Source: Escherichia coli (lineage in GTDB: Bacteria; Pseudomonadota; Gammaproteobacteria; Enterobacterales; Enterobacteriaceae). Taken from it: DNA of 64,000 nt. The stretch is from assembly GCF_003334355.1 (NCBI RefSeq), contig NZ_QOWP01000002.1. The stretch is one strand, 5' to 3'. This document shows positions 5,331 to 30,817 of the stretch, piece after piece (within the stretch, counting starts at the first letter, position 1; every line of letters starts with the position of its first letter). The notes under the pieces are model-generated. The model searched no databases. It saw only the letters and a list, made by a program, of their open reading frames with translations, and was not told the origin of the DNA. The position numbers and the translations under genes were made by a program.

Positions 5331-5784
5331 TTATTAGCTCCTCATATTTCGAACGAGGTAATTGATAGAGGGTGATTCCTACCGGTTTTCCGTTACTCAT
5401 GTACGCATCATCAAGGTGACCAACACGGGTAGCGCCAAGCAAACGGATAATTGCCCGTCCGTATTTGGTGGTGTCAGGAACCATGGTGATGCTGTTAAGG
5501 AATGGTGAGTTTTCGAGAAGCCATTTGCAGAATAATCGATGCCCTTGCAGTGCATATTCTCCACGGAATCCGGGGTCATACACCGCATGGCATTCAACAA
5601 CGCTATGCCAGAAGTTACGCACTTCATGAACTCCAGCCAGCACTAATCCTTCGTAGATGCCGAGATATACCGCATCAGGCTTGATGTAGTATTTGTCTCC
5701 ACTGTCTACGATATTTCCCGTGTTTGCCGGGTTGTTGAGGAATTCTGCAAGCTTCACCGGGTTATCGATGAGCTTTATGTGCAT
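5317..5784 (-). CDS. virion-associated protein, P22 gp14 position
   Basis: 155 aa ORF between needle and gp7-like genes; assignment by synteny only. Confidence 0.45.
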   Translation of the reverse strand: MHIKLIDNPVKLAEFLNNPANTGNIVDSGDKYYIKPDAVYLGIYEGLVLAGVHEVRNFWHSVVECHAVYDPGFRGEYALQGHRLFCKWLLENSPFLNSITMVPDTTKYGRAIIRLLGATRVGHLDDAYMSNGKPVGITLYQLPRSKYEELINVST

Positions 5785-6485
5785 TAGTTGATTAATCCAT
5801 GTGTTCGTAAGGCGTCTTCCAGTGCTTTGATGCGCTGCCGCGCCTGCTGTAAACCTGTAGCCATAGCGGAAACTTCAGACTGCGTATACGTGGTACTGAC
5901 CGTGTATGCCTGGTTAGCGTTGAATGCGCCGAGAAGTGCCGTTCCGGTTGCTGCTGTCCATCCTGTCTGACGAGCACCGATAACCTTGGTGCCGCCGACT
6001 GAATAGGATGTTGTTACGTTGAGGGGGGATGCCAGCGATTGTGTTGCTGTGGCTGTTTTCGATACGTAATCGTCCTGCAATGCAGAAATATTTCCTTCAG
6101 CCTCCGTCACTCTACCATCGAGAGCACTGACATCAGCCTGCAAGGTGACTATTTCACCTTCAGCCGTGGTTAGTCTGACATCCAGCGACGCGATTGCATT
6201 GGTATTTGCAGTAATACGGATTTCATGGTCGTCTACGTCGATGCGGAGCTGACGAATTCTTTCTTCGTGATCGACCAGAATCACATCCTGCTCATCGTTC
6301 CTGACCTGTGCATGATAAGCGCCCTGTCCGGCCTCGTTGGCCTTGTTAGCCACGTTACCAACATCAGCGCCCTGTGCGATAACGTACAGCAGATATGACT
6401 GCGAGAAGATATTGCGTGGAAGGATTGATGTATCGAGCCGTGTAGCTTGGATGATTACCGGCACATTGAGATTCGAATCAGCCAT
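5784..6485 (-). CDS. tail needle protein, P22 gp26 homolog
   Basis: N-terminus [25 protein letters not shown]… and C-terminus …RTHGLIN closely match P22 gp26; coiled-coil heptads. Confidence 0.85.
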
Positions 6486-7023
6486 TAACATGCCTCCACG
6501 ATTTACCAGACTGGATATTGTGAATCACCGTCTGACTGACACAGTATTTTTTAGCAAGCTCTCTTTGATTAACTCCCTTTGATTTCTTTATTTCTATTAC
6601 TTGCTCATATGAGAGCTTTGAAATTGGATTATTTTCTCCTTTTAAAGCCGGAAACTTCACCCTGCCTTGAGATGAGCAATGCTTCATATTCTCCTTTTGA
6701 GTACACCACTCTAAATTAGAAGCATTATTATTTTTTCGGTTGTTATCTATGTGATTTATGAACGGCTTGCCTTCTGGATTGGGGACGAAAGCAAGAGCGA
6801 CAAGCCTATGCACAAGCCATTTTACTTTAACTCCATCAACACTAAGTGGCAAATATAGATAACCTTTATTATTCTCGTGTTGTTTTAGCCACCGACCCTT
6901 TCTGAGTTGCGTGCTGCCATGCGCAGCCTTAACAACACGTGAGTGAGAATATACTCGCCCATCCTCTGTTACGGCATATAAACCTTCATATCCAGGAATA
7001 TCTTTTGCGTTTTCACTCAACAT
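6478..7023 (-). CDS. free-standing HNH homing endonuclease (NUMOD4 + HNH_3 + C-terminal HTH)
   Basis: [17 protein letters not shown] (NUMOD4), HRLVALAF…[17 protein letters not shown] (HNH); AT-rich; inserted between gp10 and gp26 genes, 8-bp overlap with gp26 start. Confidence 0.8.
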
Positions 7024-7044
7024 ATCTACTCCTTTAGTTTCGAT

Positions 7045-8463
7045 TTATGTTACACGAATAGAAAGGCCTGATAATGTAACAGGACCTTTTGCAATAACTC
7101 TGAATTTAAATCCAATGAGGCGTCTAACTCGACCAACTTTTCGCCATAAAACGCGATTGTCATATACAAATGGTTTTTGTAATACGACCATTTGCTCACG
7201 ACCGTAATTAATTCCATCTGTAGTTGCTGATATAAATATTCTATCTATTCTATCACACACGCCGCCAGATGTTTCTAATTCAAGGTCATTTATTAAAGCG
7301 TTATCTGCCTTTATTAGAGGGGAATATAAAATATGCTCTTGTTGTTTTTCGTATTGTGAAGATATATCGAACTGCAATTTCCCGGTCACGGATTCCAGCT
7401 TATCGCCGCACGTTATCTGATTGCCTTCGTAAATGAAGTCGATAGCGCGGTACACATCGTCATACAAGCCAGTTTTCAACACACACCATTGCGGACCATT
7501 GGCGCTTGAAGATGCGTCGTACACGAGAACATGGCGCGCAAGATGGATAATCAGCAACTCATGCGCATCAAATCGTAGAGACTCCATCACGCCATCAGCC
7601 AGTTCATCAGCAGTGTAGGAACGGAGGATTTTCTCAATGCTCGCGCTGGCGATTGGTGATACCTGACCGGAGCCGATGATGTACACAGACGGCGCACCTG
7701 TTGCCGGATTGCTGATGAACGCATACGAATCAGCAAACGGCGTTTTGCAGTAAGTTCCGGCGATGCCTTTTTGCACCATCAGTGATGGCTGTGCGACATA
7801 CAAAGCAGCACCAACGGTGGTTGCGCCAGTCAGGGAGAAATATTCAATCGTCGATGAACCAAAGCAGACGATGAAGTCTCGCCATGTGCCGATACCGATG
7901 ATGCCGTCCGGCTGCGACTCGGCACGATATTGTGCGCTGTAACGGTCAGGATGCGATTCGTCTTCAAGGTCAGTGATAAACCATGAATCAGTGCCGTCTT
8001 TTGACCACGCATAACGCCCACGCAAGCGCGTAATGTCACGAACCGAACCTAACTCATACTGAGTGAATCCGCTATCTGCAGGCCAGTTTGAGACGGTTTT
8101 AACCGTGCCATCATAGCGATACTCGACCAGCTGACCGTTAACACCTACCGCCTGTGATGTCCGACCATGCGCCATTGATACGCGACCGCTTCCGGCAACA
8201 TCACCGACTTCACTTTCTCCTTTGTACAGCTTGCCACCACACACGCGATAAACAGCACCCTGCGCCATGTTGTACTCGACGCCGCGAGATACACCGTTCA
8301 CATCAGAACGTTTGGCAATGCCCGGGAATGAGCGAAGATATCCGCTGCTGTTCAGGATTTCTTTGGGTGTGGCCAGCATATTCACTGGCAGATAGTCGAT
8401 ATAGTCGGCGTTTCGAAAGTCTTTGCCGACACCTTTCATAAGCGGAAGTTGCTGAATCGGCAT
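7045..8463 (-). CDS. tail hub protein, P22 gp10-like
   Basis: 472 aa, identical length to P22 gp10; position after gp4-like gene. Confidence 0.7.
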   Translation of the reverse strand: MPIQQLPLMKGVGKDFRNADYIDYLPVNMLATPKEILNSSGYLRSFPGIAKRSDVNGVSRGVEYNMAQGAVYRVCGGKLYKGESEVGDVAGSGRVSMAHGRTSQAVGVNGQLVEYRYDGTVKTVSNWPADSGFTQYELGSVRDITRLRGRYAWSKDGTDSWFITDLEDESHPDRYSAQYRAESQPDGIIGIGTWRDFIVCFGSSTIEYFSLTGATTVGAALYVAQPSLMVQKGIAGTYCKTPFADSYAFISNPATGAPSVYIIGSGQVSPIASASIEKILRSYTADELADGVMESLRFDAHELLIIHLARHVLVYDASSSANGPQWCVLKTGLYDDVYRAIDFIYEGNQITCGDKLESVTGKLQFDISSQYEKQQEHILYSPLIKADNALINDLELETSGGVCDRIDRIFISATTDGINYGREQMVVLQKPFVYDNRVLWRKVGRVRRLIGFKFRVIAKGPVTLSGLSIRVT

Positions 8464-19921: not shown

Positions 19922-20208
19922 GGCTTAATCTTCCCCTCCTTCAGCAGTATCGTCTGCGTCCTGATCACACCTTCGAGGTGGTAAAGTCTGGCGTCTTTGT
20001 TGTCGAGATTATGGGTGCGTCGGTCGATTTCATCGTGACACGCGCTACAAGCCCATGCGCCGATCAGGTCTTCAGGCTTCATTCCAGTTCCGCAAATTCC
20101 AGCCATCCGGTAATGTGCCAGAACTGTAGTTTCAGGATTACCATTGCATACGCCGTAAATACGTACCTGGCATTCTCTGCCGCGTGCTTCTTTGCGTAGG
20201 TTAGCCAT
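19918..20208 (-). CDS. YbcO-like DUF1364 protein (nin region)
   Basis: 96 aa RGRECQVRIYGVCNGNPETTVLAH…CSACHDEIDRRTH resembles DLP12 YbcO. Confidence 0.7.
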   Translation of the reverse strand: MANLRKEARGRECQVRIYGVCNGNPETTVLAHYRMAGICGTGMKPEDLIGAWACSACHDEIDRRTHNLDNKDARLYHLEGVIRTQTILLKEGKIKP

Positions 20209-20933
20209 TAAGCAGCCTCCCCTGTTACTTTCAGCATTCCGTTATCGAGCAGCTTTCTGGTCAGCCACTGTTGACCACGCCCGGTGATTTTTGTGGTGAA
20301 CGATATCTGTATTCCGTGATTTGTATTGACCGCTGTTTCTTTCACTGTGAAATAGCCGCGATCCATATATTCCTGCATTGGCACATTGCGCCGGGAACCT
20401 GAAGCAATAAGGATTTTGTGATCACGCATCCACGCAAACAGTTTGTTTGGACCAATACCGACAACCTTTGCAAAGTTTCCAATCAAAATTCCGCTGGCCT
20501 CGCCAACGCGATCGGCAAACTCAACTTTAGGTGCGGCAATTGCGAGCTGGTTTTCCAGCTGCATTTTCTGCTCAGCAAGATCAGCAGCAAGGCGCAACGC
20601 TTCCGGTAGCGTTTTGGGGATATTAACCGCAGCTTCTTCAAGCTCTCGCCAGCGGTCAACAAGACGAGCGGTGAATTCCGGCGACAACTGAGCGACGACA
20701 ATAATGCTGTCTCGCTTACCTTGTTCGCCTTCGAAGACGTAGAAATCACGCTTCCCGGTAATAACACCTAAATCATTGATTATGTTAGTGTGCTGCAATG
20801 CAGGAGGCTTGATAACGCCACGTTTCACCAATCTATCTATGGATACTTTTACATTGCTATGGCGGCTTTCTACCAGTTCGGCAATTTCGATACTGGTCAT
20901 CTTAACGGAAGAGAAACAAATTAAATTACTCAT
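20208..20933 (-). CDS. Rha-family regulatory protein with KilAC/ANT C-terminal domain (antirepressor-like)
   Basis: N-terminal MTSIEIAELVESRHSNV (Rha) and C-terminal GPNKLFAWMRDHKIL…GYF (KilAC-like). Confidence 0.75.
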   Translation of the reverse strand: MSNLICFSSVKMTSIEIAELVESRHSNVKVSIDRLVKRGVIKPPALQHTNIINDLGVITGKRDFYVFEGEQGKRDSIIVVAQLSPEFTARLVDRWRELEEAAVNIPKTLPEALRLAADLAEQKMQLENQLAIAAPKVEFADRVGEASGILIGNFAKVVGIGPNKLFAWMRDHKILIASGSRRNVPMQEYMDRGYFTVKETAVNTNHGIQISFTTKITGRGQQWLTRKLLDNGMLKVTGEAA

Positions 20934-20964
20934 TGCTATTCTCCGGTTTGCAAATTGTATTCAC

Positions 20965-21432
20965 TTAAACGCGAATGCGCACAAACTTACAACCTAACGC
21001 CGATTTTATCTCTTCCTCGCGAATGCGATCCGCGTCCATATGCTGAGGCGCAAAATGTTGTTCCTCGTCTATTTCATAGGCGATATTGTTTACAGGATCA
21101 TAGCCATCTATGCGGTATTTATCTAAAACCGGATATTGCCTTATTAATTTAACTCCTTGTAATTGTTCGATGGTGGTTAATGCTATTGTCTCAGAACATC
21201 TATTTAATGCTATTCTCTGATGCTTAAACACGTTAGCAACATCAGCATCAACAACAAAAACCTCTCGCTTAACTTTGAATCCTAGATTATTTTCATAATA
21301 TTCATATTTAATATCGTGCTTTATCCCGTTTTTTATTATGGTACGTTTCACATTGTCATGACGCTTACCCACCAACTCAGCGATTTCAATGCTTGTCATT
21401 TTGATGGCATTGCCATTTATTAACTCATTCAT
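20965..21432 (-). CDS. Rha-like N-terminal domain fused to DUF559/Vsr-like endonuclease-fold C-terminal domain
   Basis: N-terminus MTSIEIAELVGKRHDNV duplicates neighbouring Rha start; C-terminus YRIDGYD…IAYEIDEEQH…DADRIREEEIKSALGCKFVRI fits DUF559 pattern; 3' half AT-rich. Confidence 0.55.
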   Translation of the reverse strand: MNELINGNAIKMTSIEIAELVGKRHDNVKRTIIKNGIKHDIKYEYYENNLGFKVKREVFVVDADVANVFKHQRIALNRCSETIALTTIEQLQGVKLIRQYPVLDKYRIDGYDPVNNIAYEIDEEQHFAPQHMDADRIREEEIKSALGCKFVRIRV

Positions 21433-21595
21433 CGTCTTCTTCCTCGTACATTGAGCTATTCGGATCGCTCATCAGTTCTGCACAGCAGTGCTCACACACG
21501 TGAACTTCCAGCACATGCAGCTTTTGACCGCAATTAGCGCACGTTAAAGCCCGCTCGACGCTTTCTTGTTCGTAACTTCGATTTGGGTCAATCAC
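21425..21595 (-). CDS. ninF: NinF
   Basis: GTG-initiated 56 aa …[40 protein letters not shown]… matching lambda NinF; below ORF-track size cutoff. Confidence 0.75.
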
Positions 21596-21774
21596 CTTGT
21601 TTTCCTCGCACGTTCTCTAAGCCACCGGATATCCCACAGGTGAGCCGTGTAATTGAAGGTTTTTACGTCAGATTCTTTTGGGATTGGCTTGCGTTTATTT
21701 CTGGAGCGTTTCGTTGGAAGGTATTTGCAGTTTTCGCAGATGATGTCGGTGATACTTCGTCGCTGTCTCGCCAT
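21592..21774 (-). CDS. ninE: NinE
   Basis: 60 aa [30 protein letters not shown]… with AAGGAGG SD; lambda NinE-like. Confidence 0.75.
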
Positions 21775-21914
21775 ACGTCCTCCTTTCCCTGCGGTAGTGG
21801 TAAAACTCCTGTTGGTGTTCTTTCACACCGGAGACACCATCGATTCCAGTAAGGCTGTCCTGGTCGAAAGCGATCGTCTTCCTTTCGCTCTCCACATCGA
21901 TAACAGTGCTTCAT
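21663..21914 (-). CDS. ninD: NinD-like zinc-ribbon protein (3' end overlaps ninE in another frame)
   Basis: [31 protein letters not shown]; true stop uncertain because the frame stays open over ninE. Confidence 0.5.
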
Positions 21915-22501
21915 GCGATCACCATTTTGCATGGTTTAATCGCCATTCCGGGAGCCAGTTCAAAATCGGAGTTGCACTGATTGCCCCACATATCCCACCC
22001 GGTCACTTTGTCGCGGCTAAATAACTCACAGCGCGGCACGTCGCCAAGCAACTTAGCTAACATGTCTCTTACGATCGGTGGTTTTGCACTGTGCTCCATT
22101 CTCGGTGCGGTAAAGTGCTGGCATATTGAAGCGTCCATTCTCTCAGGCAACCGCCCTCGAACAGCAAACAAGCAATCCTCGCTATTTGCCCTGGTCATAT
22201 GCCCCATTCCGATCGCACTGTTGCCTTTGTGCTTATTGGTTTTGTGCCAGGTAAAGCCTTTCATAGTCATCAACCTGAATCCCCACGCCTCAACTACCTT
22301 TAGCGCTTCGGCTGGCTGTGTCGGCACCCACCACATCGCTAACAAGCAAGATTCTGGATCCGCTAAATCCCATACTGGCAGTCGGCAAATGTCCTGAACA
22401 TTCATAACATCGTATTTATGTCCAGCACCGCGATTGCCATCGTTGGCTTTGTCGCGATATTGCCAAGGCGGATCTGCGTAAATAAGTCGGTATTTGTTCA
22501 T
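21911..22501 (-). CDS. MT-A70 family DNA N6-adenine methyltransferase
   Basis: 196 aa with IYADPPWQY motif; nin-region position. Confidence 0.85.
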
Positions 22502-22938
22502 GCAGCTTTATCTCCCCATCTCGCTTTCCACTCCAGATCCAGTCGCGCTTCGTCTGACCACTTAACGCCACGCTCTGTACCGAATGCCTGTATAAGCTCT
22601 AATAGCTCCGCAAATTCGCTTACACGCATCCTGCTGGTTGACTGGCCTATTACCACAAAGCCATTCCCGGCAAGGTTAGGAACAACGTCCTGCTGCTTTA
22701 ATGCTGCGGTAAACACACACTTCCAGCTTTCTGCATCCAGCCAGCGACCATGCCATTCAACCTGACGAGAGACGTCACCTAAGCAGGCCCATAGCTTCCT
22801 GTTTTGGTCTAAGCTGCGGTTGCGTTCCTGAATGGTTACTACGATTGGTTTGGTTGGGTCTGGAAGGATTTGCTGTACTGCGTGAATAGCGTTTTGCTGA
22901 TGTGCTGGAGATCGAATTTCAAAGGTTAGTTTTTTCAT
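22498..22938 (-). CDS. ninB: NinB (Orf-family recombination mediator)
   Basis: 146 aa MKKLTFEIRSPAHQQNAIHAVQQILPDPTKP… near-identical to lambda NinB. Confidence 0.9.
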   Translation of the reverse strand: MKKLTFEIRSPAHQQNAIHAVQQILPDPTKPIVVTIQERNRSLDQNRKLWACLGDVSRQVEWHGRWLDAESWKCVFTAALKQQDVVPNLAGNGFVVIGQSTSRMRVSEFAELLELIQAFGTERGVKWSDEARLDLEWKARWGDKAA

Positions 22939-23131
22939 GACTTCCCTCTCTAACAGATTTCAGGTTATTCCACTCCGTTACCGCACTGCGATAATTCGCG
23001 GCCGCCACAGCGGCGTGGTTAGCGCAGTAGATTTGGCACCCGTTCTCCATGTCTAATATTGTCGGTGATTTTCCGCATTTACATTTTTTGGCACGCGGTG
23101 CGTCTGAACACATTCCGTTAACGGTGTTCAT
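22919..23131 (-). CDS. hypothetical Cys-rich small protein
   Basis: 70 aa ORF between helicase and ninB with CKCG…C…C pattern. Confidence 0.4.
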   Translation of the reverse strand: MNTVNGMCSDAPRAKKCKCGKSPTILDMENGCQIYCANHAAVAAANYRSAVTEWNNLKSVREGSHEKTNL

Positions 23132-23212
23132 CAGGATCCCCCTCGTTCTTAATCCAATAAAAAAGGGCTACTGTGTAAATAGCCCCTGTTATTAGCTCAG
23201 TGATGTAGATGG

Positions 23213-24589
23213 TCATACGTCCGCCCCTTGTGCATATCGTCTGCCACGCGCAGCAGGCGCATTTGATGCTGTGCAAATCTGTCTGGCTTCATCCTGGTCA
23301 CATGCAACAAAGTGTCCGTTGCAGAACCGCTGGTAAACCGTACCAAGTGAGCCAAAACGGTTTTTCGTCACGATGATTTCAGCAAATGGCGCGGCGCTAC
23401 TGTTCTCGTCATATACCGCTTCCCGATAGAGCATGATGATTGAGTCTGCGTCCTGCTCAATGCTTCCTGAATCACGCAAATCTGCGTTTGTCGGGCGTTT
23501 GTTTGGTCGCTTCTCAACATCGCGCGAAAGCTGACTCAGGGAGATAACCGGTGTTTTCAGGTCTTTCGCCATCGCCTTCAGGCTTCCGGAGATGTGAGCA
23601 ATTGCGAGGTCGTTGCGGTCTGCTTTCGGCTTCTCAATCAGGCCAAGATAATCCGCCATGATGAGTGAGATGTTTGGATTTTCCTGTTTGTGCCGCTCTG
23701 CGATTGAGCGAATTTCTTCTACCGATAACCGCGAGGCATCGACTACCCATACATCCAAATCTGCAAGCTGACTCATGCCGTTAGCAACACGCGCCCAGCC
23801 TTCGTCATCCATCGATGCAGGATTTCGCAGTACGCTAACCGACATCCTCCCGGCGTTGGCAATGCTTCGCTCTGCAATCTGCAATGCGCTCATTTCCATT
23901 GAGAAAATCAATACTCCGCGCCGGACGTCAGAACCAGGAATAACGCGGCTTGCAACGCCTTCGGCAATCTTCAGCGCCAGCTCGGTTTTCCCCATACCAG
24001 GACGAGCAGCGATTATCACCAGGTCTTCTGCGTTCATCCCTCCGGTGATGGCGTCAAGTTCTTCGATTCCGGTCTTCAGGGTATCTGACTCTTCTCCGTT
24101 CCTCAGACGCCTGTCAAGCGTGTCAGTGTAGTCAGTGATGATTTCCCCTAACCGTACAGGTTTAACCTCGTCACGGGGCTTTCTGATGGCTGAGAGACGC
24201 TTTACAAGCTCGTCCATCGCCTGACTCGATGTATCGATGGTTCCGCTCTGAATTGGTTCACGCATTTCATCCATGATTTCCAGCACCAGACGGCGGTGAT
24301 AGTTATCTGCGACCATTCCGGCATATCCCTTCAGGTTTGCGGCACTCGGGCAGTTTTTGCTGGTCATCAGGATTGACGTGAAATGCTCCTCTCCGCACGC
24401 CTCGGCAACCATCAGCGCGTCGATTAAATTTCTGTTTCGCGCCTGCTTGCGGATAACCTCGAAGGCTTTCCGGTAGAGCGGAATTGAAAACGCTTCCGGC
24501 TCCAGCGTTGCCAGAACGTCGCTGGCGGTTGGTGTTAATCCACCAATCAGCAGGCCACCGATAACGCTCGCTTCGATATCCTGTCTCAT
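23213..24589 (-). CDS. DnaB-type replicative helicase (P22 gene 12-like)
   Basis: 458 aa with Walker A GMGKT and DnaB C-terminal motifs. Confidence 0.9.
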
Positions 24590-25416
24590 GCAATCCCCCT
24601 GTCTGCAAACTTCCCTTCCCGAACTCCCGTTAACGAGTCTTCCCTCAGCAGGTAATCAAAATCAGCCGTCCAGCCCGTGTCGTTGTCTCCGAAGTAAAAC
24701 GGCTTGGCCTGATGCACAAACGCCCTGACATACGCTCTGAAACCGTCCACATTTGGCGTTTTCAGTTGCGGGATGATTTTCTTCAGGCGGCGTTTGCGTT
24801 TCTCGTTGACCGCAACAGCGTGTGGCAGTCTGTCACCGACTTCGGTGTTGTAGGCGTTCAGGAAGGATTCGTAGTCGATTCGTTCTGCCTTGCGACGTTC
24901 AGGTTTAACCTGCCCATCGCCGCCCCCGTTAGGGGGTAAGGGGGTATTTGTATTTATTGTCTTTTGTATATTGTCTTTTGTGTTTGACTGATTCGGTAAA
25001 TTGCTTTTTACCGATTTGGTGAAGGTTTGTTTTACCGAATTAGTAAATGTTTTACCGAATCCGTTAACTTTCGTTTTCCACTCGGAAATGTTTGTATTCA
25101 TACCAACTTGACGCCCCACCTGAATGAGAACTCCCATTCTGATAAGCTCGTTTTTGGCGGTAGAGCATTTGGTTGGTGCCATGCCAGTGAGTTCAGCGAA
25201 CTGTTCGTTTCCGATCCAATCTATTTTTTTGTTGTAACCGTATGTCTTGCGCCACACAGCCATAACAATCAGTAACTGATGTGCAGTAAGCCCAGAAAGC
25301 ATGGCGGCTTCTAACAGTGTGTTTGCAGTCCGAGTGTAGCCATCTTCGAGTTCTGCCACGCGATGCTCCACGACCTCCAGTTGAGGCCTGTAATCAGCTA
25401 ACTTAACGACGCCCAT
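24586..25416 (-). CDS. replication initiator, lambda O / P22 gp18-like
   Basis: 276 aa; N-terminal O-like domain, low-complexity linker encoded over iterons. Confidence 0.75.
24981..25060. repeat. replication origin iterons (TTTTACCGAAT x3 plus one inverted copy) with adjacent AT-rich tract
   Basis: Copies starting 25005, 25030, 25050 and inverted copy 24981-24990; CCCCCGTTAGGGGG and TTGTCTTTTGT repeats nearby. Confidence 0.6.
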
Positions 25417-25596
25417 GTTTCACTCCTGCTTTGGCTAGTCTGTAAACACCAACAAGGCGCTCTGCGAACGCCCTGTTATTTGCTGCGGCTACCACTAATC
25501 CCTCAGGTGAATCAGGGTGTCGAATCTCTTCTTTTTCCTGGTATTTCTTACGACGTTTTGTCATAATTACTCCTGTGGATTGATCCAGTAATTCCC

Positions 25597-25893
25597 TCAG
25601 AATTGCATATCAATTTGCTTAAAATCCTCGGTGGCAGCCGGGGATTTTTTCTTTGTGATTTCATCAAGCGCATACTTAAAAGCCCTGCTAATCGGACTGA
25701 TGTCTGATGCCATTCCGAAAGCACACAAGACCGAAGCAATAAATCTCCAGTCCGTTCTGCTTATCTTCGATTCATGACAGCCAATCATCTTTGCCAGACC
25801 GCGCTGGGTAAGCGTTGACAGGTTGATGAGTAAATCAGTTTCAGCGCGATCAATTTCTCGCTGTGTTGGCTTGCTGTAACTTGTTTGTGTCAT
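25597..25893 (-). CDS. cII: CII-like transcriptional activator
   Basis: 98 aa; C-terminus KKKSPAATEDFKQIDMQF parallels lambda CII KKRPAATERSEQIQMEF. Confidence 0.75.
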   Translation of the reverse strand: MTQTSYSKPTQREIDRAETDLLINLSTLTQRGLAKMIGCHESKISRTDWRFIASVLCAFGMASDISPISRAFKYALDEITKKKSPAATEDFKQIDMQF

Positions 25894-26014
25894 TTCTTAC
25901 TATCTCCATAGGTAAATAATTTGGGTTTTTATCGTGCACCATTGACAGTCATCCTTGACCACGCCGGGCACCCGACCGTATACCGGGCCGTTCGGTACTA
26001 AAAGTACATTTTTA

Positions 26015-26245
26015 TTACATAACAAACTGCTGTTTACCGATACGGCGAATCTGTGCTGCTGAGTACTTGCCGCCTGATGCCTTGGCGATCTTATCCGCAT
26101 ATTCGGTTTCACCAGTGAACTCGGTACGCGGCAGAGAACCACGCTCAAGCCACTTATAGATGGCTTTTGGCGTAAGTCCACAAACATCAGCCACAACAGA
26201 AACTCGAACGGATTTGATAACTTCTCCAAACGTAACTTCGTTCAT
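26015..26245 (-). CDS. cro: Cro-like HTH repressor
   Basis: 76 aa HTH protein divergent from cI across operator repeats. Confidence 0.6.
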   Translation of the reverse strand: MNEVTFGEVIKSVRVSVVADVCGLTPKAIYKWLERGSLPRTEFTGETEYADKIAKASGGKYSAAQIRRIGKQQFVM

Positions 26246-26261
26246 GCTTCTCTCCTGTGGT

Positions 26262-26331
26262 GAACTTATGGTTCATATTATGACGGAACTGATAGTACAG
26301 TCAATACCTAATATAGTTGAACTTATGGTTC
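26262..26331. promoter_or_regulatory. cI/cro operator region: two copies of palindrome TGAACTTATGGTTCA
   Basis: Identical 15-mers at 26262-26276 and 26317-26331 between divergent cro and cI; second overlaps cI start codon. Confidence 0.55.
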
Positions 26332-27032
26332 AACAGAAAGAGCGTGAAACTTTCTCGCAGAGGCTTGCGCTGGCCTGTGATAAAGCGGGATTACCTTTGC
26401 ATGGTAGGCAGGCTGATTTAGCTGTCAGGCTTAAGGTCACACCAAAAGCCATTAGTAAATGGTTCAACGGGGAGTCAATACCAAGAAAAGACAAGATGGA
26501 ATCTCTGGCTTCGGTGCTGGGAACTACTGCTGCATATCTGCATGGCTATGCTGATTATGACGGTATCACGGTAAATCATCTATCAAGATCAAATGATTCT
26601 TATCGTGTTGATGTATTGGATGTTCAGGCGAGCGCCGGGCCAGGAACCATGGTTTCCAATGAATTTATAGAAAAGATAAGAGCAATTGAATATACGCCCG
26701 AGCAGGCAAGAATTTTATTTAATGGAAGGCCACAGGAAAGCGTAAAAGTCATCACGGTTCGCGGTGACAGCATGGAGGGAACCATCAATCCGGGAGATGA
26801 GATCTTTGTTGATGTATCCATAACCTATTTTGATGGCGATGGCATTTATGTGTTTGTATACGGGAAAACAATGCACGTTAAGCGCCTGCAAATGCAAAAG
26901 AACAGGCTTGCCGTCATCTCTGACAATGCCGCTTATGATCGATGGTACATAGAAGAAGGTGAAGAAGAGCAACTTCACATTCTAGCCAAAGTCCTCATTA
27001 GGCAGTCAATCGATTACAAGCGATTCGGATAA
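26325..27032 (+). CDS. cI: CI prophage repressor (HTH + S24 LexA-like autopeptidase)
   Basis: N-terminal HTH, C-terminal S24 fold (GDSMEGTINPGDEIFVD …KRL). Confidence 0.85.
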   Translation: MVQQKERETFSQRLALACDKAGLPLHGRQADLAVRLKVTPKAISKWFNGESIPRKDKMESLASVLGTTAAYLHGYADYDGITVNHLSRSNDSYRVDVLDVQASAGPGTMVSNEFIEKIRAIEYTPEQARILFNGRPQESVKVITVRGDSMEGTINPGDEIFVDVSITYFDGDGIYVFVYGKTMHVKRLQMQKNRLAVISDNAAYDRWYIEEGEEEQLHILAKVLIRQSIDYKRFG

Positions 27033-27274
27033 AAATAAATTTCCTTAAAGTTCACTAACTTATGATGTAGTGAGCTTTTTATACCCATAAAATGTACTAT
27101 TGGTACTTTACATTAATGAACTTTAAGTACATCATAAGCCCATAGACGAACGGCGCGTCTTTAAACCATGCGTCGGGAGCGCGGCGGGTTCAGGATGAAC
27201 GGCAATGCTGCTCACTACAAAAGAACATTTCCATAACCGGAGGGTTATTGAAGTGTTTTTGTTAGGAGGTTTAA

Positions 27275-27808
27275 GTGGATCTTACTCAAGTGTCTGTAAG
27301 GGAGATTCTTCATTACAATCCTGTGAGTGGTGACTTTTATTGGAAGCCGAGAGCAAAGCATTTGTTTGCGGATAACAGAGCTGCCTTGACGTGGAACAAG
27401 AAGTATCCAGGTAAAAAGGCTGGCTCACCTGACAACAAGGGTTATCTGAGAATAAATATTGGAGGTAAAAAATTTAAGTCTCACAGACTTGCATGGCTTT
27501 ACGTGCATGGCTACTGGCCTGATGTGATTGATCACATAAACGGCGTTAAGGATGACAACAGAATCTCCAATTTAAGAAGCGTTTCTTTCAAAGAGAATAT
27601 GAAAAACATGCCTTTAAAATCATCTTCATCAACTGGAGTTACAGGTGTTGAAGCAAGAAAAGAGCATGGGTTTTATGTTGCATCGATAACTGTGGATGGA
27701 AAACGAAAATACCTAGGCTCATTCAAACTTTTAGATGATGCCAAACAAGCAAGGAAAGAAGCCAATGCACTATATGGCTTTCATGAAAATCATGGACGGA
27801 GCCAGTAA
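27275..27808 (+). CDS. HNH endonuclease with AP2 DNA-binding domain
   Basis: HRLAWLYVHGYWPDVIDHINGVKDDNRISNLR (HNH_3) followed by AP2-like TGVTGV…GFYVASITVDGKRKYLGSF. Confidence 0.8.
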   Translation: MDLTQVSVREILHYNPVSGDFYWKPRAKHLFADNRAALTWNKKYPGKKAGSPDNKGYLRINIGGKKFKSHRLAWLYVHGYWPDVIDHINGVKDDNRISNLRSVSFKENMKNMPLKSSSSTGVTGVEARKEHGFYVASITVDGKRKYLGSFKLLDDAKQARKEANALYGFHENHGRSQ

Positions 27809-27938
27809 ACGTGTTTCAAGAGCCATTTCGCTTGCAGGAACGCGTTAGAAGGAAGTTGAAGGTGGTACTGTCTGCCTGCCAGAAGTTGCGCTTTTCGCAG
27901 CTGGTCATCGTACAAGTAAGCAGGTTACAGCGAGGTAA

Positions 27939-28166
27939 GTGATGAATCAGACATACATTCCATCATGCTTGAGAAATCTGCCAAAGCAGAAAGCAAAGCC
28001 CCGCAAGCAAGCCATAAAGGACGCTAAGTCAGAGGTTATTGATAAAGCAATACAATTGCTCAGGGAGGAGTTAAGAAGTGGCAAGCTCGAAGGAATGATG
28101 ATGCCCTATCAGCGCGGATATCTATCGGCGATTAGTAAGTTGGAAGTATTGAAGAGTGAATTATGA
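27939..28166 (+). CDS. hypothetical basic protein
   Basis: 75 aa ORF in early-left operon. Confidence 0.35.
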   Translation: MMNQTYIPSCLRNLPKQKAKPRKQAIKDAKSEVIDKAIQLLREELRSGKLEGMMMPYQRGYLSAISKLEVLKSEL

Positions 28167-28221
28167 ACTACCTGGAATTTCCGGATGGTTCATTGTTTTG
28201 GCAGCAAGCATAGAGGTGAAT

Positions 28222-28518
28222 ATGGAATTCAAAGGTACTAAAGGTAAGTGGGAAATAATGATGGATGGCGATGAGATTAAAATCATCCAGGCAGACTCAC
28301 TTGAAAATGGCGCAGGCTGGCGTTCGTATATTGCAATCTGTGAGGAAGTTCAATGCATTGAAGATGCCAATCTAATAGCGGCAGCACCTGAACTTCTCGA
28401 AGCACTTCAGTTATTACTTAAGCAATCCAAAAATAGAACAACGACAACATATCCAGAATGGTATGGAGCTGTTAATAAAGGTTTTGCAGCAATCATCAAG
28501 GCTCTGGGAGGTGAGTGA
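28222..28518 (+). CDS. hypothetical protein
   Basis: 98 aa from ATG with GAGGTG SD. Confidence 0.35.
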   Translation: MEFKGTKGKWEIMMDGDEIKIIQADSLENGAGWRSYIAICEEVQCIEDANLIAAAPELLEALQLLLKQSKNRTTTTYPEWYGAVNKGFAAIIKALGGE

Positions 28519-28718
28519 TGTGCGAGTTTTACGAAGCAGATATCAAACGCCCAGAAATGGCAAGTGATGCGACATTACGTGATTACTTCGCGGCAAAGGC
28601 TATGCAAGCAATGATTAGCAATCCATCGATTATCGATAATGATTCTGATGGAGCTGTTAATTATGCAGCAAGCGCTGCATATAAGTTTGCAGACGCAATG
28701 CTCAAAGCTCGCGAATAA
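28518..28718 (+). CDS. hypothetical protein
   Basis: 66 aa, start overlaps previous stop, GGGAGG SD. Confidence 0.35.
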   Translation: MCEFYEADIKRPEMASDATLRDYFAAKAMQAMISNPSIIDNDSDGAVNYAASAAYKFADAMLKARE

Positions 28719-28813
28719 GCACTGTGTATTCATTCCAACGAGTGAATACACGGAGCAATGTCGCTCGTAACTAAACAGGAGCCGACTTGTTCTGATTATT
28801 GGAAATCTTCTTT

Positions 28814-28837
28814 GCCCTCCGATGTGAGGGCTTTTTT
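28814..28837 (+). terminator. rho-independent terminator (GCCCTC-CGATGT-GAGGGC + T6), preceded by 9-bp perfect hairpin at 28724-28751
   Basis: Stem-loop and T-run read directly. Confidence 0.45.
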
Positions 28838-28903
28838 ATATGCATACCAATAACGCTTCACTCGAGGCGTTTTCGTTATGCAATCAAACAGAAGGAGCAT
28901 CCT

Positions 28904-29074
28904 ATGCAACAGTTCGCTATTGCAGGGGCGGCATCGGTTCGCCCTTTCAACCCGATTTTATCGGTACAGCATTCACGAAAAAATATTTTAACCGGAGCAG
29001 ACTTTAAACAACCAAGAATGAAAAGTTTGCTCGAAAAGCTTTGGGATATTTTGAAACAACAAGGCCGTCCATGA
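28904..29074 (+). CDS. hypothetical small protein
   Basis: 56 aa from ATG with AGGAG SD. Confidence 0.3.
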   Translation: MQQFAIAGAASVRPFNPILSVQHSRKNILTGADFKQPRMKSLLEKLWDILKQQGRP

Positions 29075-29229
29075 GTTTTACAGATAACTGGTCAGACGAA
29101 GAATTCATTCGTCAGATGAAAGAATTAATCGGTAACGAAGGAGATATTCATGTCACTTGCAACCACAGTGAAGGAGAGCAAGTTACAGAGACGCATGTAC
29201 ACGCAGAAAGCTCTCTGGTATCGCCATAA
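29071..29229 (+). CDS. hypothetical small acidic protein
   Basis: 52 aa, start overlaps previous stop. Confidence 0.3.
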   Translation: MSFTDNWSDEEFIRQMKELIGNEGDIHVTCNHSEGEQVTETHVHAESSLVSP

Positions 29230-29330
29230 TGGTGACCGCGAAGGAATGCGGGTATGCCTTAATTTGTCCCGAGTCGAAGTATTAAATCAGCGTTATTTCC
29301 TTGGGCCATGTCCATTCTGAGAACAATCAT

Positions 29331-29936
29331 ATGAGCAAAGAATTTTACGCAAGACTGGCAGCCATTCAGGAGAATCTGAACGCGCCAAAAAATCAGTACA
29401 ACTCATTCGGTAAATATAAATACAGAAGCTGCGAAGATATTCTTGAAGGCGTTAAGCCGTTACTGAATGGTCTGTTTTTATCAATCAGCGATGAAGTTGT
29501 GTTGATTGGTGATCGGTATTACGTGAAAGCCACGGCAACTATTACCGATGGCGAAAACAGTCATACGGCAACCGCTCTTGCACGAGAGGAAGAAAGCAAG
29601 AAAGGAATGGATTCTGCACAAGTTACGGGAGCTACAAGCTCTTATGCACGCAAGTATTGCCTCAATGGTTTGTTCGGCATTGATGATGCGAAAGATGCAG
29701 ATACCGACGAGCATAAACATCAGCAGAACGCAGCAGCAAAGCAATCAAAACCATCACCTACACCTGAACAGGTTCTAAAAGCATTCACTGACGCAGCATT
29801 GCAGAAAAACACCGTAGAAGAGCTTAAACAGGCGTTCGCCAAAGCGTGGAAGATGCTCGAAGGCACACCGGAGCAGCACAAAGCGCAGGACGTTTACAAC
29901 ATCAGACGAGACGAATTAGAAGGAGCGGCTGCTTAA
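29331..29936 (+). CDS. erf: ERF-family single-strand annealing protein
   Basis: FYARLAAIQENLNAPKNQYNSFGKYKYRSCEDILEGVKP matches ERF N-terminal pattern. Confidence 0.75.
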   Translation: MSKEFYARLAAIQENLNAPKNQYNSFGKYKYRSCEDILEGVKPLLNGLFLSISDEVVLIGDRYYVKATATITDGENSHTATALAREEESKKGMDSAQVTGATSSYARKYCLNGLFGIDDAKDADTDEHKHQQNAAAKQSKPSPTPEQVLKAFTDAALQKNTVEELKQAFAKAWKMLEGTPEQHKAQDVYNIRRDELEGAAA

Positions 29937-30319
29937 TGGCACATTCGATTACTGTAAGACTAAACAAGCCCGCAAGAGAGTTTCAGGCCGGGGAAAATAT
30001 CGGATTCAACATCCGTGCTGGCGTTCAGTATTACGATCGCCAGACAAAAAAGAAAGAATGGACAAACTACAGCGCCGTTGTATTTGCCAAGCCGGGAGCG
30101 CAAGCGGATTACTACCGTAGTGTTCTTGTTGAAGGTGGCATTGTGGAAATTACCGGAGAAAACATCAGGGTTGATGTTTATCAGGGGCAAAATGGTCAAT
30201 CAATCACTCTTGAATTACTGAATGCAAAGATTGGATTTGCAGCTTCAGGAAATGGCCCGCAGCAGCAAAGTAGTAACCAGCAGAACACTCCTGTATACGA
30301 CGATTCCATCCCATTCTGA
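29936..30319 (+). CDS. ssb: phage single-stranded DNA-binding protein
   Basis: OB-fold-like body and acidic C-terminal tail ending DDSIPF; start overlaps erf stop (TAATG). Confidence 0.7.
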   Translation: MAHSITVRLNKPAREFQAGENIGFNIRAGVQYYDRQTKKKEWTNYSAVVFAKPGAQADYYRSVLVEGGIVEITGENIRVDVYQGQNGQSITLELLNAKIGFAASGNGPQQQSSNQQNTPVYDDSIPF

Positions 30320-30342
30320 TTTAGAAAAATAAGGATTTAATT

Positions 30343-30639
30343 ATGCCAGCGCCTCTGTATGGTGCGGATGACCCGCGCCGCTGTTCCGGCAATTCCGTAT
30401 CGGAGGTGCTGGATAAATTCAGAAAAAACTACGATCGAATAATGTCTCTACCGCAGGAAACGAAAGAGGAAAAGGAATTTCGCCACTGTATATGGCTTGC
30501 AGAGAAAGAAGAACGCGAGCGAATTTACCAGACATCAATCCGACCATTCCGCAAAGCCACATATACCCACTTCCCTGAATATATCGACCCGCGCCTGCGT
30601 AATTACCGCTCACGCTATGGCGCTATCAGTAATGACTGA
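30343..30639 (+). CDS. hypothetical protein
   Basis: 98 aa ORF with SD. Confidence 0.4.
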
Positions 30640-30649
30640 GGAATTTACC

Positions 30650-30817
30650 ATGAGAGGACTTGCATACAATCCCGGCATTCTTCCGGCAGAAATGATTATT
30701 CGCCAACGCGTAAAGCCAATGCCATCGAGAGAGGAATTGCTTAAGAGAAATTCTTTTCCATCAGTAAATCAAAACAAATATCTGAATGCGATGTGGCGCA
30801 AAGGAGGCAACCAGTGA
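30650..30817 (+). CDS. hypothetical small protein
   Basis: 55 aa. Confidence 0.3.

Follow-up and report, generated by a model that had tools for sequence, protein, structure and literature searches.

How does a lambdoid prophage extend transcription of its early operons if the first gene behind its repressor encodes an endonuclease and no N-type antiterminator can be recognised? A preliminary description of the locus had left this question with two answers, a divergent N or an RNA-based mechanism. The DNA analysed here is a stretch of 64,000 nucleotides from Escherichia coli (contig NZ_QOWP01000002.1 of assembly GCF_003334355.1), called the window in the following. Its plus strand corresponds to the leftward early operon of lambda and carries cI (26325-27032), a 242-nt non-coding leader and an intact ORF of 177 codons (27275-27808), which is indeed the first credible gene after cI. 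On the minus strand, to the left of cI, are cro (26015-26245), cII (25597-25893), a replication initiator and a DnaB-type helicase. Antitermination by RNA elements of the phage HK022 type, acting from PL as well as from PR, is the best-supported reading of this region and very probably the correct one.

Immunity region and put sites

The direct comparison with HK022 (AF069308) gave 99.63% identity over positions 25590-27217 (6 mismatches in 1628 nt), a block that spans cII, putR, cro, OR, cI, OL1-3, PL and putL. Five of the six mismatches are located within 25636-26827 and the sixth is 27215, at the end of the HK022 identity, and the stretch containing OL, PL and putL (27033-27214) has no mismatch at all. 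A megablast search of 26990-28200 against phage genomes returned HK022, the HK022/lambda hybrid O276 and HK75, with 99-99.6% identity over the first 228 nt, which are annotated in the records of these HK022-type phages as the end of cI, oL3, oL2, oL1, pL and 'putL antiterminator RNA'. Judged by its sequence, the prophage carries a complete HK022 immunity and early-control region with the following elements:

26325-27032, plus strand: cI repressor of HK022 immunity type, 235 aa, 4 substitutions compared to HK022 (phrog_4, E 3e-51)
26015-26245, minus strand: cro of HK022 type, in the 99.6% HK022 block; the HK022 Cro CDS maps here
26304-26277, minus strand: PR, -35/-10 TTGACT/CATAAT from the promoter scan, -10 at 26277-26282
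27071-27085, 27093-27108 and 27117-27130: OL3, OL2 and OL1, 100% identical to HK022, positions from the HK75 annotation
27107-27112 and 27130-27135, plus strand: PL, -35 TTTACA and -10 CATCAT, the O276 pL hexamers, also from the promoter scan
27142-27214, plus strand: putL antiterminator RNA, +1 to +73, exact match to HK022, O276 and HK75
25933-25994, minus strand: putR antiterminator RNA site between cro and cII, exact match to HK022, coordinates via the HK75 and O276 annotations

The order of these elements differs from lambda, in which rexAB and then pL-N follow cI; in HK022-type phages OL and PL come directly after cI. The lambda layout with which the locus had been compared is therefore not the appropriate reference. 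The operator-like half-site reported earlier, TGAACTTTAAGTACA (27116-27130), is OL1 of HK022 according to the HK75 annotation, and the GC-rich segment that had been thought able to fold turned out, by its identity with HK022, to be putL. The preliminary description had thus looked at a known mechanism without recognising it: the leader 27033-27214 is the OL/PL/putL region of HK022, and its partner putR lies between cro and cII.

The put mechanism has been known since the 1990s, and the structure was solved in 2022. HK022 lacks N and is the textbook example of antitermination that is mediated by RNA and independent of N (PMC9378689). Its put RNA works by itself, binding the zinc-binding domain of the RNA polymerase beta' subunit without help from a phage protein (PMC9378689). 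Intrinsic as well as Rho-dependent termination are suppressed over at least 10 kb (PMC9378689 and work cited there).

In the window, the start of putL coincides with the PL transcription start, which we place at 27142 using the published numbering (-10-like AACCAT at +23 to +28, U28 and G35; PMC9378689). With this +1 the numbering of the cryo-EM paper is reproduced, with U28, G35/G36 and C72 in place and A3-G7 pairing with C15-U19 (PMC9378689). The structured part from A3 to C72 corresponds to 27144-27213, and all residues required for put according to the mutagenesis and cryo-EM data of PMC9378689 are present in putL (A3-G7, A9, U28, G35, G45, A64, U68 and C72). The distance from the PR start to putR, which begins at 25994, is about 276 nt, the published value being about 270 nt. 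HK022, HK75 and the laboratory hybrid O276 have the same exact putL and putR and the same PL, OL, OR, cI, cro and cII at the same positions, together with corresponding terminators.

Thermodynamic folding against shuffled sequences was uninformative for both RNAs (z -0.8 for putL and -0.2 for putR); the published put structure includes a triplex and non-canonical pairs (PMC9378689). A scan of 20000-34000 against Rfam, which contains no put family, gave no put match at E ≤ 1, and the single match obtained, mir-7927 on the hairpin at 27221-27262, was rejected as spurious (28 bits, gathering score 75). Since the folding scores are uninformative and Rfam lacks a put family, the put assignment rests on the identity with HK022. 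The copies of putL and putR at hand hardly vary, so that a covariance model for put would add little to the exact match with HK022. The few informative base pairs of this near-invariant family are found in A357, UPF_BP1, phiEt88 and one further locus (L012), where U5:A17 replaces the A5:U17 of HK022 and, in some, U3:A19 replaces A3:U19. Both pairs are preserved, and the base changes of these relatives thus keep the A3-G7/C15-U19 duplex seen by cryo-EM. We also considered whether the variant of the putL 5' stem (GUCG/CGAC) marks a co-conversion tract with the endonuclease gene, and rejected this idea: the variant occurs in five loci lacking that gene (L014, L015, L022, L023 and L025), and loci carrying it have both variants.

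The HNH-AP2 gene and its boundaries

The identity with HK022 stops at +74 (27215), two bases past the last paired put residue. In HK022 this position is followed by a leader of about 180 nt, the nun promoter and nun, whereas in the window a different leader (27215-27263) with a stable hairpin and a U-run is followed by the endonuclease gene and a remnant of N:

27221-27263, plus strand: hairpin followed by the U-run UUUUUGUU, candidate intrinsic terminator or gate, MFE -19.5 kcal/mol, z -4.1 compared to shuffled sequences
27264-27808, plus strand: HNH_3 + AP2-fold endonuclease gene, ribosome binding site AGGAGG at 27264-27269, GTG start at 27275, intact, 177 aa

Folding of the leader, which had been proposed as a check, pointed to the post-putL hairpin rather than to putL. 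The hairpin is AU-rich, has an internal mismatch and was not called by the terminator scan; it might terminate polymerases that do not carry put, or serve as a gate for them. The anti-pausing activity of put depends on the distance from a pause located 21 nt behind stem II (PMC9378689), and the sequence past +74 is unlike that of HK022. Terminator read-through via put was shown to be distance-independent.

The designation of the gene product as HNH-AP2 is justified by the HNH_3 domain, the AP2 fold, the homology to I-HmuI and the existence of a recognised HNH + AP2 family. Pfam detects HNH_3 (PF13392) at residues 70-109 (E 4.4e-15) and no significant AP2 domain in the protein itself; NCBIfam has no family for it or for the three small ORFs downstream. 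In the full-length relative P0021 (51% identical), AP2 (PF00847) is found at residues 109-155 (E 9e-6), which correspond to residues 120-166 of the window protein, and PF00847 and HNH_3 occur together in about one seventh of the homologues listed. The AlphaFold model (pLDDT 96) contains a C-terminal domain of a three-stranded sheet and a helix that matches the AP2 domain of AtERF1 (1gcc) with probability 1.00 and an rmsd of 0.9 Å over 48 columns, and also the AP2 domains of TEM1 and WRINKLED1 (7et4, 7wq5). The protein matches phrog_99 ('HNH endonuclease', E 5e-66) and the homing endonuclease I-HmuI (1u3e, E 3.6e-5), its nearest solved HNH homing enzyme. Residues D86, H87, N99, N108 and N111 do not vary among 42 homologues.

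HNH + AP2 is a recognised architecture of phage homing endonucleases, the genes of which are often located at boundaries of genetic exchange (PMC10448857). With the 'IPA-HNH' homing endonuclease genes described there, the window gene shares the N-terminal HNH_3 and C-terminal AP2 fold, the small stand-alone gene with its own ribosome binding site, the position exactly at a mosaic junction and the polymorphic presence. The IPA-HNH genes belong to lytic phages, where they lie close to structural, replication or nrd genes, whereas the window gene belongs to a temperate lambdoid phage and is found in its immediate-early leader, directly behind an antiterminator RNA.

The site also exists without the gene. 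Three loci (L014, L015 and L022, the latter from E. coli 01_3327) share putL and the hairpin with the window and then continue with unrelated sequence, showing a presence/absence polymorphism at one site; at the top of their hairpin stem a C-G pair is changed to U-A, a single compensatory difference. Compared with these loci, the cassette starts right after the U-run (27263) and ends at about 27803, where the homology to N codon 43/44 starts; it consists of the ribosome binding site and the ORF (about 545 bp). ET729 and APC_JM3.2, which have HK022- or A357-type immunity, contain putL, about 75 nt of HK022-type leader and a shorter N remnant starting at 27856. The absence of the HNH gene from this site in related phages fits a free-standing cassette of the homing-endonuclease type, that is, selfish cargo, and the gene product presumably cuts DNA and homes. 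A locus in which the gene splits an intact N into a 5' and a 3' half was searched for and none was found; one candidate (L026) turned out to have the double-HNH arrangement of L016.

Including the window, we found 15 loci with the HNH gene (the others are L004, L006, L009-L013, L016-L021 and L026), and putR is present in each of them that extends far enough. The module of hairpin, HNH gene and N remnant stands behind the HK022 cI and behind at least four other types of repressor region (A357, UPF_BP1, L012 and L016/L026); in the last of these, just the stem II half of putL is kept at the module position. The Salmonella P22-like phage UPF_BP1 and the E. coli prophages CUVET21-PYO5 and A357 have the same putL-hairpin-HNH-N remnant module with 98-99% identity, while the repressor and operator regions of UPF_BP1 and A357 are unlike those of the window. 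In UPF_BP1 the module (98% identity) is joined after 27861 to a remnant of the P22 gene 24 type. The junction sequence between putL and hairpin was also found in 12 IMG/VR viral contigs. Among 5426 complete E. coli genomes, 6 contain at least 80% of 27033-27940, and 48 contain some part of it, mostly putL.

The gene might also have been domesticated in the slot of nun, for instance as an immediate-early nuclease that causes superinfection exclusion by cleaving the genomes of competing N-type lambdoid phages, or as a DNA-binding regulator with an AP2 domain. It holds the position of nun, the exclusion gene of HK022, directly behind putL; it adjoins a truncated N gene; and the protein is 96-99% conserved between Salmonella and E. 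coli prophages, belongs to a cluster of 234 member sequences and has its catalytic residues intact. We nevertheless consider this unlikely, since the gene lies behind PL, which is repressed in the lysogen, with no separate promoter found, whereas nun has one, and since it is rare in the complete E. coli genomes. Its presence and absence, the compact arrangement of ribosome binding site and ORF, and the second, unrelated HNH gene that L016 and L026 have at this position are traits of a selfish cassette. The two interpretations, domestication and selfish cargo, are not fully exclusive.

A further possibility concerns the leader itself. It may be a landing pad for homing endonucleases, where HNH-AP2 would cut the intact N genes or HNH-less post-putL leaders of lambdoid phages residing in the same cell, and repair would copy the block of putL, hairpin and HNH gene into the phage that was cut. 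This is a speculative proposal to which we give little credence. If it were true, HNH-AP2 would be an immediate-early weapon that replaces Nun, and it would also convert N-dependent left operons into put-dependent ones and leave N 3' remnants behind. The three types of N remnants behind putL and the second HNH gene in L016 and L026 are compatible with such a landing pad and do not demonstrate it.

The N remnant and the early-left operon

Downstream of the HNH-AP2 cassette, the plus strand contains the following features:

27804-27938, plus strand: N pseudogene, codons 44-87 of an mEpX2-type N, tblastn E 2.5e-21 (27804-27935)
27939-28166, 28222-28518 and 28515-28718, plus strand: three small early-left ORFs matching phrog_5305, phrog_1273 and phrog_2201, respectively, PHROGs without assigned function
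28814-28831 and 28852-28871, each followed by a T-run, plus strand: two intrinsic terminators from the terminator scan, folding z -2.9 and -3.4
about 28905-29074, plus strand: cIII-like ORF downstream of both terminators, according to our reading of the translation

The earlier statement that no N can be recognised holds insofar as codons 44-87 are all that tblastn detected of N in the 64 kb, and a functional N was not found. The closest lambda-type N/nut system is that of mEpX2, with which the window shares the last 44 codons of N and the following gene at about 97% DNA identity. mEpX2 has N and a normal nutL with a clear boxA (GCTCTTTAA) and a boxB hairpin. The remnant in the window has no start codon and an in-frame TAG (27846-27848), and the arginine-rich motif NARNRRRARRQAQR of mEpX2 N belongs to the missing N-terminal half. 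A boxA-like match was not found on the plus strand within 27033-29000, nor was a boxB between PL and 29000, and the leader has no homology to the mEpX2 nutL. Searches of the 64 kb with tblastn using mEpX2 N, lambda N and HK75 Nun gave nothing else below E 0.4; the best match of HK75 Nun had an E of 0.65 and no homologue is present. From these searches we conclude that the window contains no functional N, nut site or Nun. Nun-mediated exclusion of lambda by this prophage is not expected because Nun is absent.

The remnant has 8 mismatches to mEpX2 N that crowd into the 45 nt following the HNH stop codon. We rejected the idea that these are immunity mutations of the endonuclease target site: 87 N alleles from viral contigs without the HNH gene show the same variants (ACGTGTTTC and others), which are ordinary polymorphism, and one locus with the HNH gene (L018) has the common form CAAAAGCC.

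One of the small ORFs (27811-27942, 27939-28166, 28222-28518 or 28515-28718) or the N remnant might still encode a divergent N-like antiterminator acting at an unrecognised nut site. The last 29 aa of the remnant (27849-27938) match the 'N-like' phrog_271 (E 2e-7), the N frame is open in 7 of the 15 loci with the HNH gene, giving an ORF of 67 aa that starts inside the HNH gene, and PGAP labels the remnant in strain A357 as 'transcriptional antitermination N peptide'. Against this stand the loss of the arginine-rich N-terminal half and the TAG in the window, as well as the lack of boxA and boxB on the plus strand from PL to 29000 and of homology to the mEpX2 nutL. The TAG is found in 8 of the 15 loci, in line with what a pseudogene in decay should show. 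As to the other ORFs, their PHROGs are found downstream of a separate N gene in phages encoding N, and the intact putL and putR would make N superfluous. A divergent N is thus highly improbable.

The profile search of 27939-28166 that had been called for gave phrog_5305, which is the gene after N, and not N, in mEpX2, mEp213, ECP1 and other phages. The genes at 27939-28718 follow N in mEpX2 and putL in ET729 and APC_JM3.2. The earlier judgement that the small ORFs do not look like N agrees with our data, which gave no evidence for an antiterminator in them and, as the sole N-related sequence, the truncated pseudogene. Of the two mechanisms originally considered, the RNA-based one gains strong support from the exact putL and putR sequences, and the divergent N is reduced to this pseudogene. 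The terminators at 28.8 kb align with those annotated in HK75 and with 'tL2a' of O276.

Early transcription in the prophage and its implications

In the HK022-type reading, which we prefer, early transcription would proceed as follows. When cI repression is lifted at OL and OR, the polymerase would start at PL (27142) and transcribe putL at once. The nascent RNA of 73 nt would fold into the two-stem, V-shaped structure solved by cryo-EM, clamp onto the zinc-binding domain of beta' in the very polymerase that transcribes it and remain there, rendering this polymerase resistant to pausing and termination. The modified polymerase would then pass the hairpin with its U-run, the HNH gene, the N remnant, the three small ORFs and the two terminators at about 28.8 kb, and would thereby get to cIII, kil and the recombination genes, while putR would do the same job for the PR operon. 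N, Nun and a nut site would all be dispensable, N being unnecessary because putL and putR are intact. The HNH-AP2 gene would have no part in antitermination; its cassette occupies the nun slot of HK022, between the hairpin after putL and codon 43/44 of the former N gene.

We take put to be active in this prophage, provided that the prophage itself is not a decaying, non-functional remnant in which nothing is expressed and the conservation of put, PL and the HNH gene just reflects a recent insertion. Next to the prophage lies host DNA (33000-37000, dsdC-dsdX-dsdA) that is 100% identical to sequenced strains, and neither an integrase ORF nor a tRNA was found between the xis-like ORF (32526-32726) and the host dsdC. 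Because of this, the prophage may be defective and put perhaps never used. The N pseudogene with its stop codon and the four substitutions in cI compared to HK022 point in the same direction. On the other hand, OR, OL, PL, PR, putL, putR, cro, cII and cI are all intact, with 99.6% identity to a phage that is viable, and the HNH, replication and structural ORFs are all open. UPF_BP1 and APC_JM3.2, viable phage isolates of the same layout, contain the N remnant as well. A prophage in decay with nothing expressed is therefore an improbable explanation.

The put system of HK022 fully explains what appeared to be an anomaly, a lambdoid prophage without N. The arrangement in which an HNH-AP2 gene occupies the nun slot beside an N pseudogene is rare and apparently undescribed; our literature search found no paper on it. 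The locus also reveals a blind spot of automated annotation, where putL and putR are missed because there is no Rfam model for put and because they do not stand out from shuffled sequences by their predicted folding energy. The cargo in the slot behind putL varies and can be nun, HNH-AP2, a second type of HNH gene or other genes. Left operons of the put type have repeatedly kept 3' fragments of N, which are of the mEpX2 type in the window, of the P22 gene 24 type in UPF_BP1 and of the lambda type in L015; these fragments are a record of the swap from protein-mediated to RNA-mediated antitermination by recombination at this junction. The loci together provide a natural set of putL leaders in differing downstream contexts, which can be used for tests of put function.

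Repressor, hairpin and the junction with the host

The cI repressor of the window prophage (26325-27032) differs in four residues from the repressor of HK022, the phage whose immunity region the prophage carries (HK022 to window: D78Y, Y92S, T125P and C168Y), and the operators are the same as those of HK022. The hairpin located between putL, the HK022-type antiterminator RNA at the start of the PL transcript, and the HNH-AP2 gene gave the sole Rfam match in 14 kb (27221-27262). This match to the animal miRNA family mir-7927 scores 28 bits, under the gathering score of 75, and is spurious. Rfam contains no model for put RNAs, thus annotation pipelines cannot annotate them.

Two features of the window delimit the prophage/host junction:
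32526-32726, AlpA/Xis-like ORF
32910-33851, dsdC, a host gene

Less than 190 nt separate the AlpA/Xis-like ORF from dsdC (32526-32910 junction), and neither an integrase ORF nor a tRNA gene is located between them; a tRNA was not found in any other part of the window either. On the dsdC side, int and att may have been lost from the prophage, or it may have a different organisation.

Additional genes behind PL in related loci

In two viral contigs, L016 and L026, the region behind PL contains a put-like element whose stem I is normal and whose stem II differs:
L016, oriented 5384-5990, put-like element and second HNH region
L026, oriented about 8015-8240, put-like element and second HNH region

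Next comes another HNH endonuclease gene, which encodes about 146 aa with the motif 'CDNPRCINPEHL' and is unrelated to the HNH-AP2 gene. Of putL, nothing but the stem II half lies beyond this second HNH gene, and the hairpin and the HNH-AP2 gene come after it. This order shows that two different homing-endonuclease-type genes are located in tandem behind PL, and one of them seems to have either split putL or duplicated it. L016 also encodes a long pentapeptide-repeat-like protein 3' of the N remnant (oriented about 6620-7450, ANLRDANLRGADLRG...), the DNA under this gene being a tandem repeat; it is a further cargo gene of the early-left operon. E. coli Z1323CEC0009 (L007, locus 113-2430) has an HNH-AP2 gene interrupted in its 5' portion by an IS100 element of the IS21 family, which cuts the gene off from putL and PL.

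Remnants of N behind putL

A 67-aa ORF runs through the N remnant (window region 27735-27938); its ATG lies within the 3'-terminal part of the HNH gene and is read in a different frame. It is open in seven of the 15 HNH-bearing loci; in the window and seven others, a TAG (27846-27848) shortens it to 37 aa. This ORF is probably meaningless. In strain A357, PGAP labelled the remnant tail as 'transcriptional antitermination N peptide'.

Two relatives, L015 (oriented about 1746-2380) and L022, carry putL and the hairpin without the HNH gene, followed by an ORF of 120-140 aa and, 3' of it, a lambda-type N C-terminal remnant ('...GVTCVGRQKMKLGSKPLI'). Thus, 3' remnants of three allelic types of N, those of mEpX2, P22 (gene 24) and lambda, are found behind putL in different phages.
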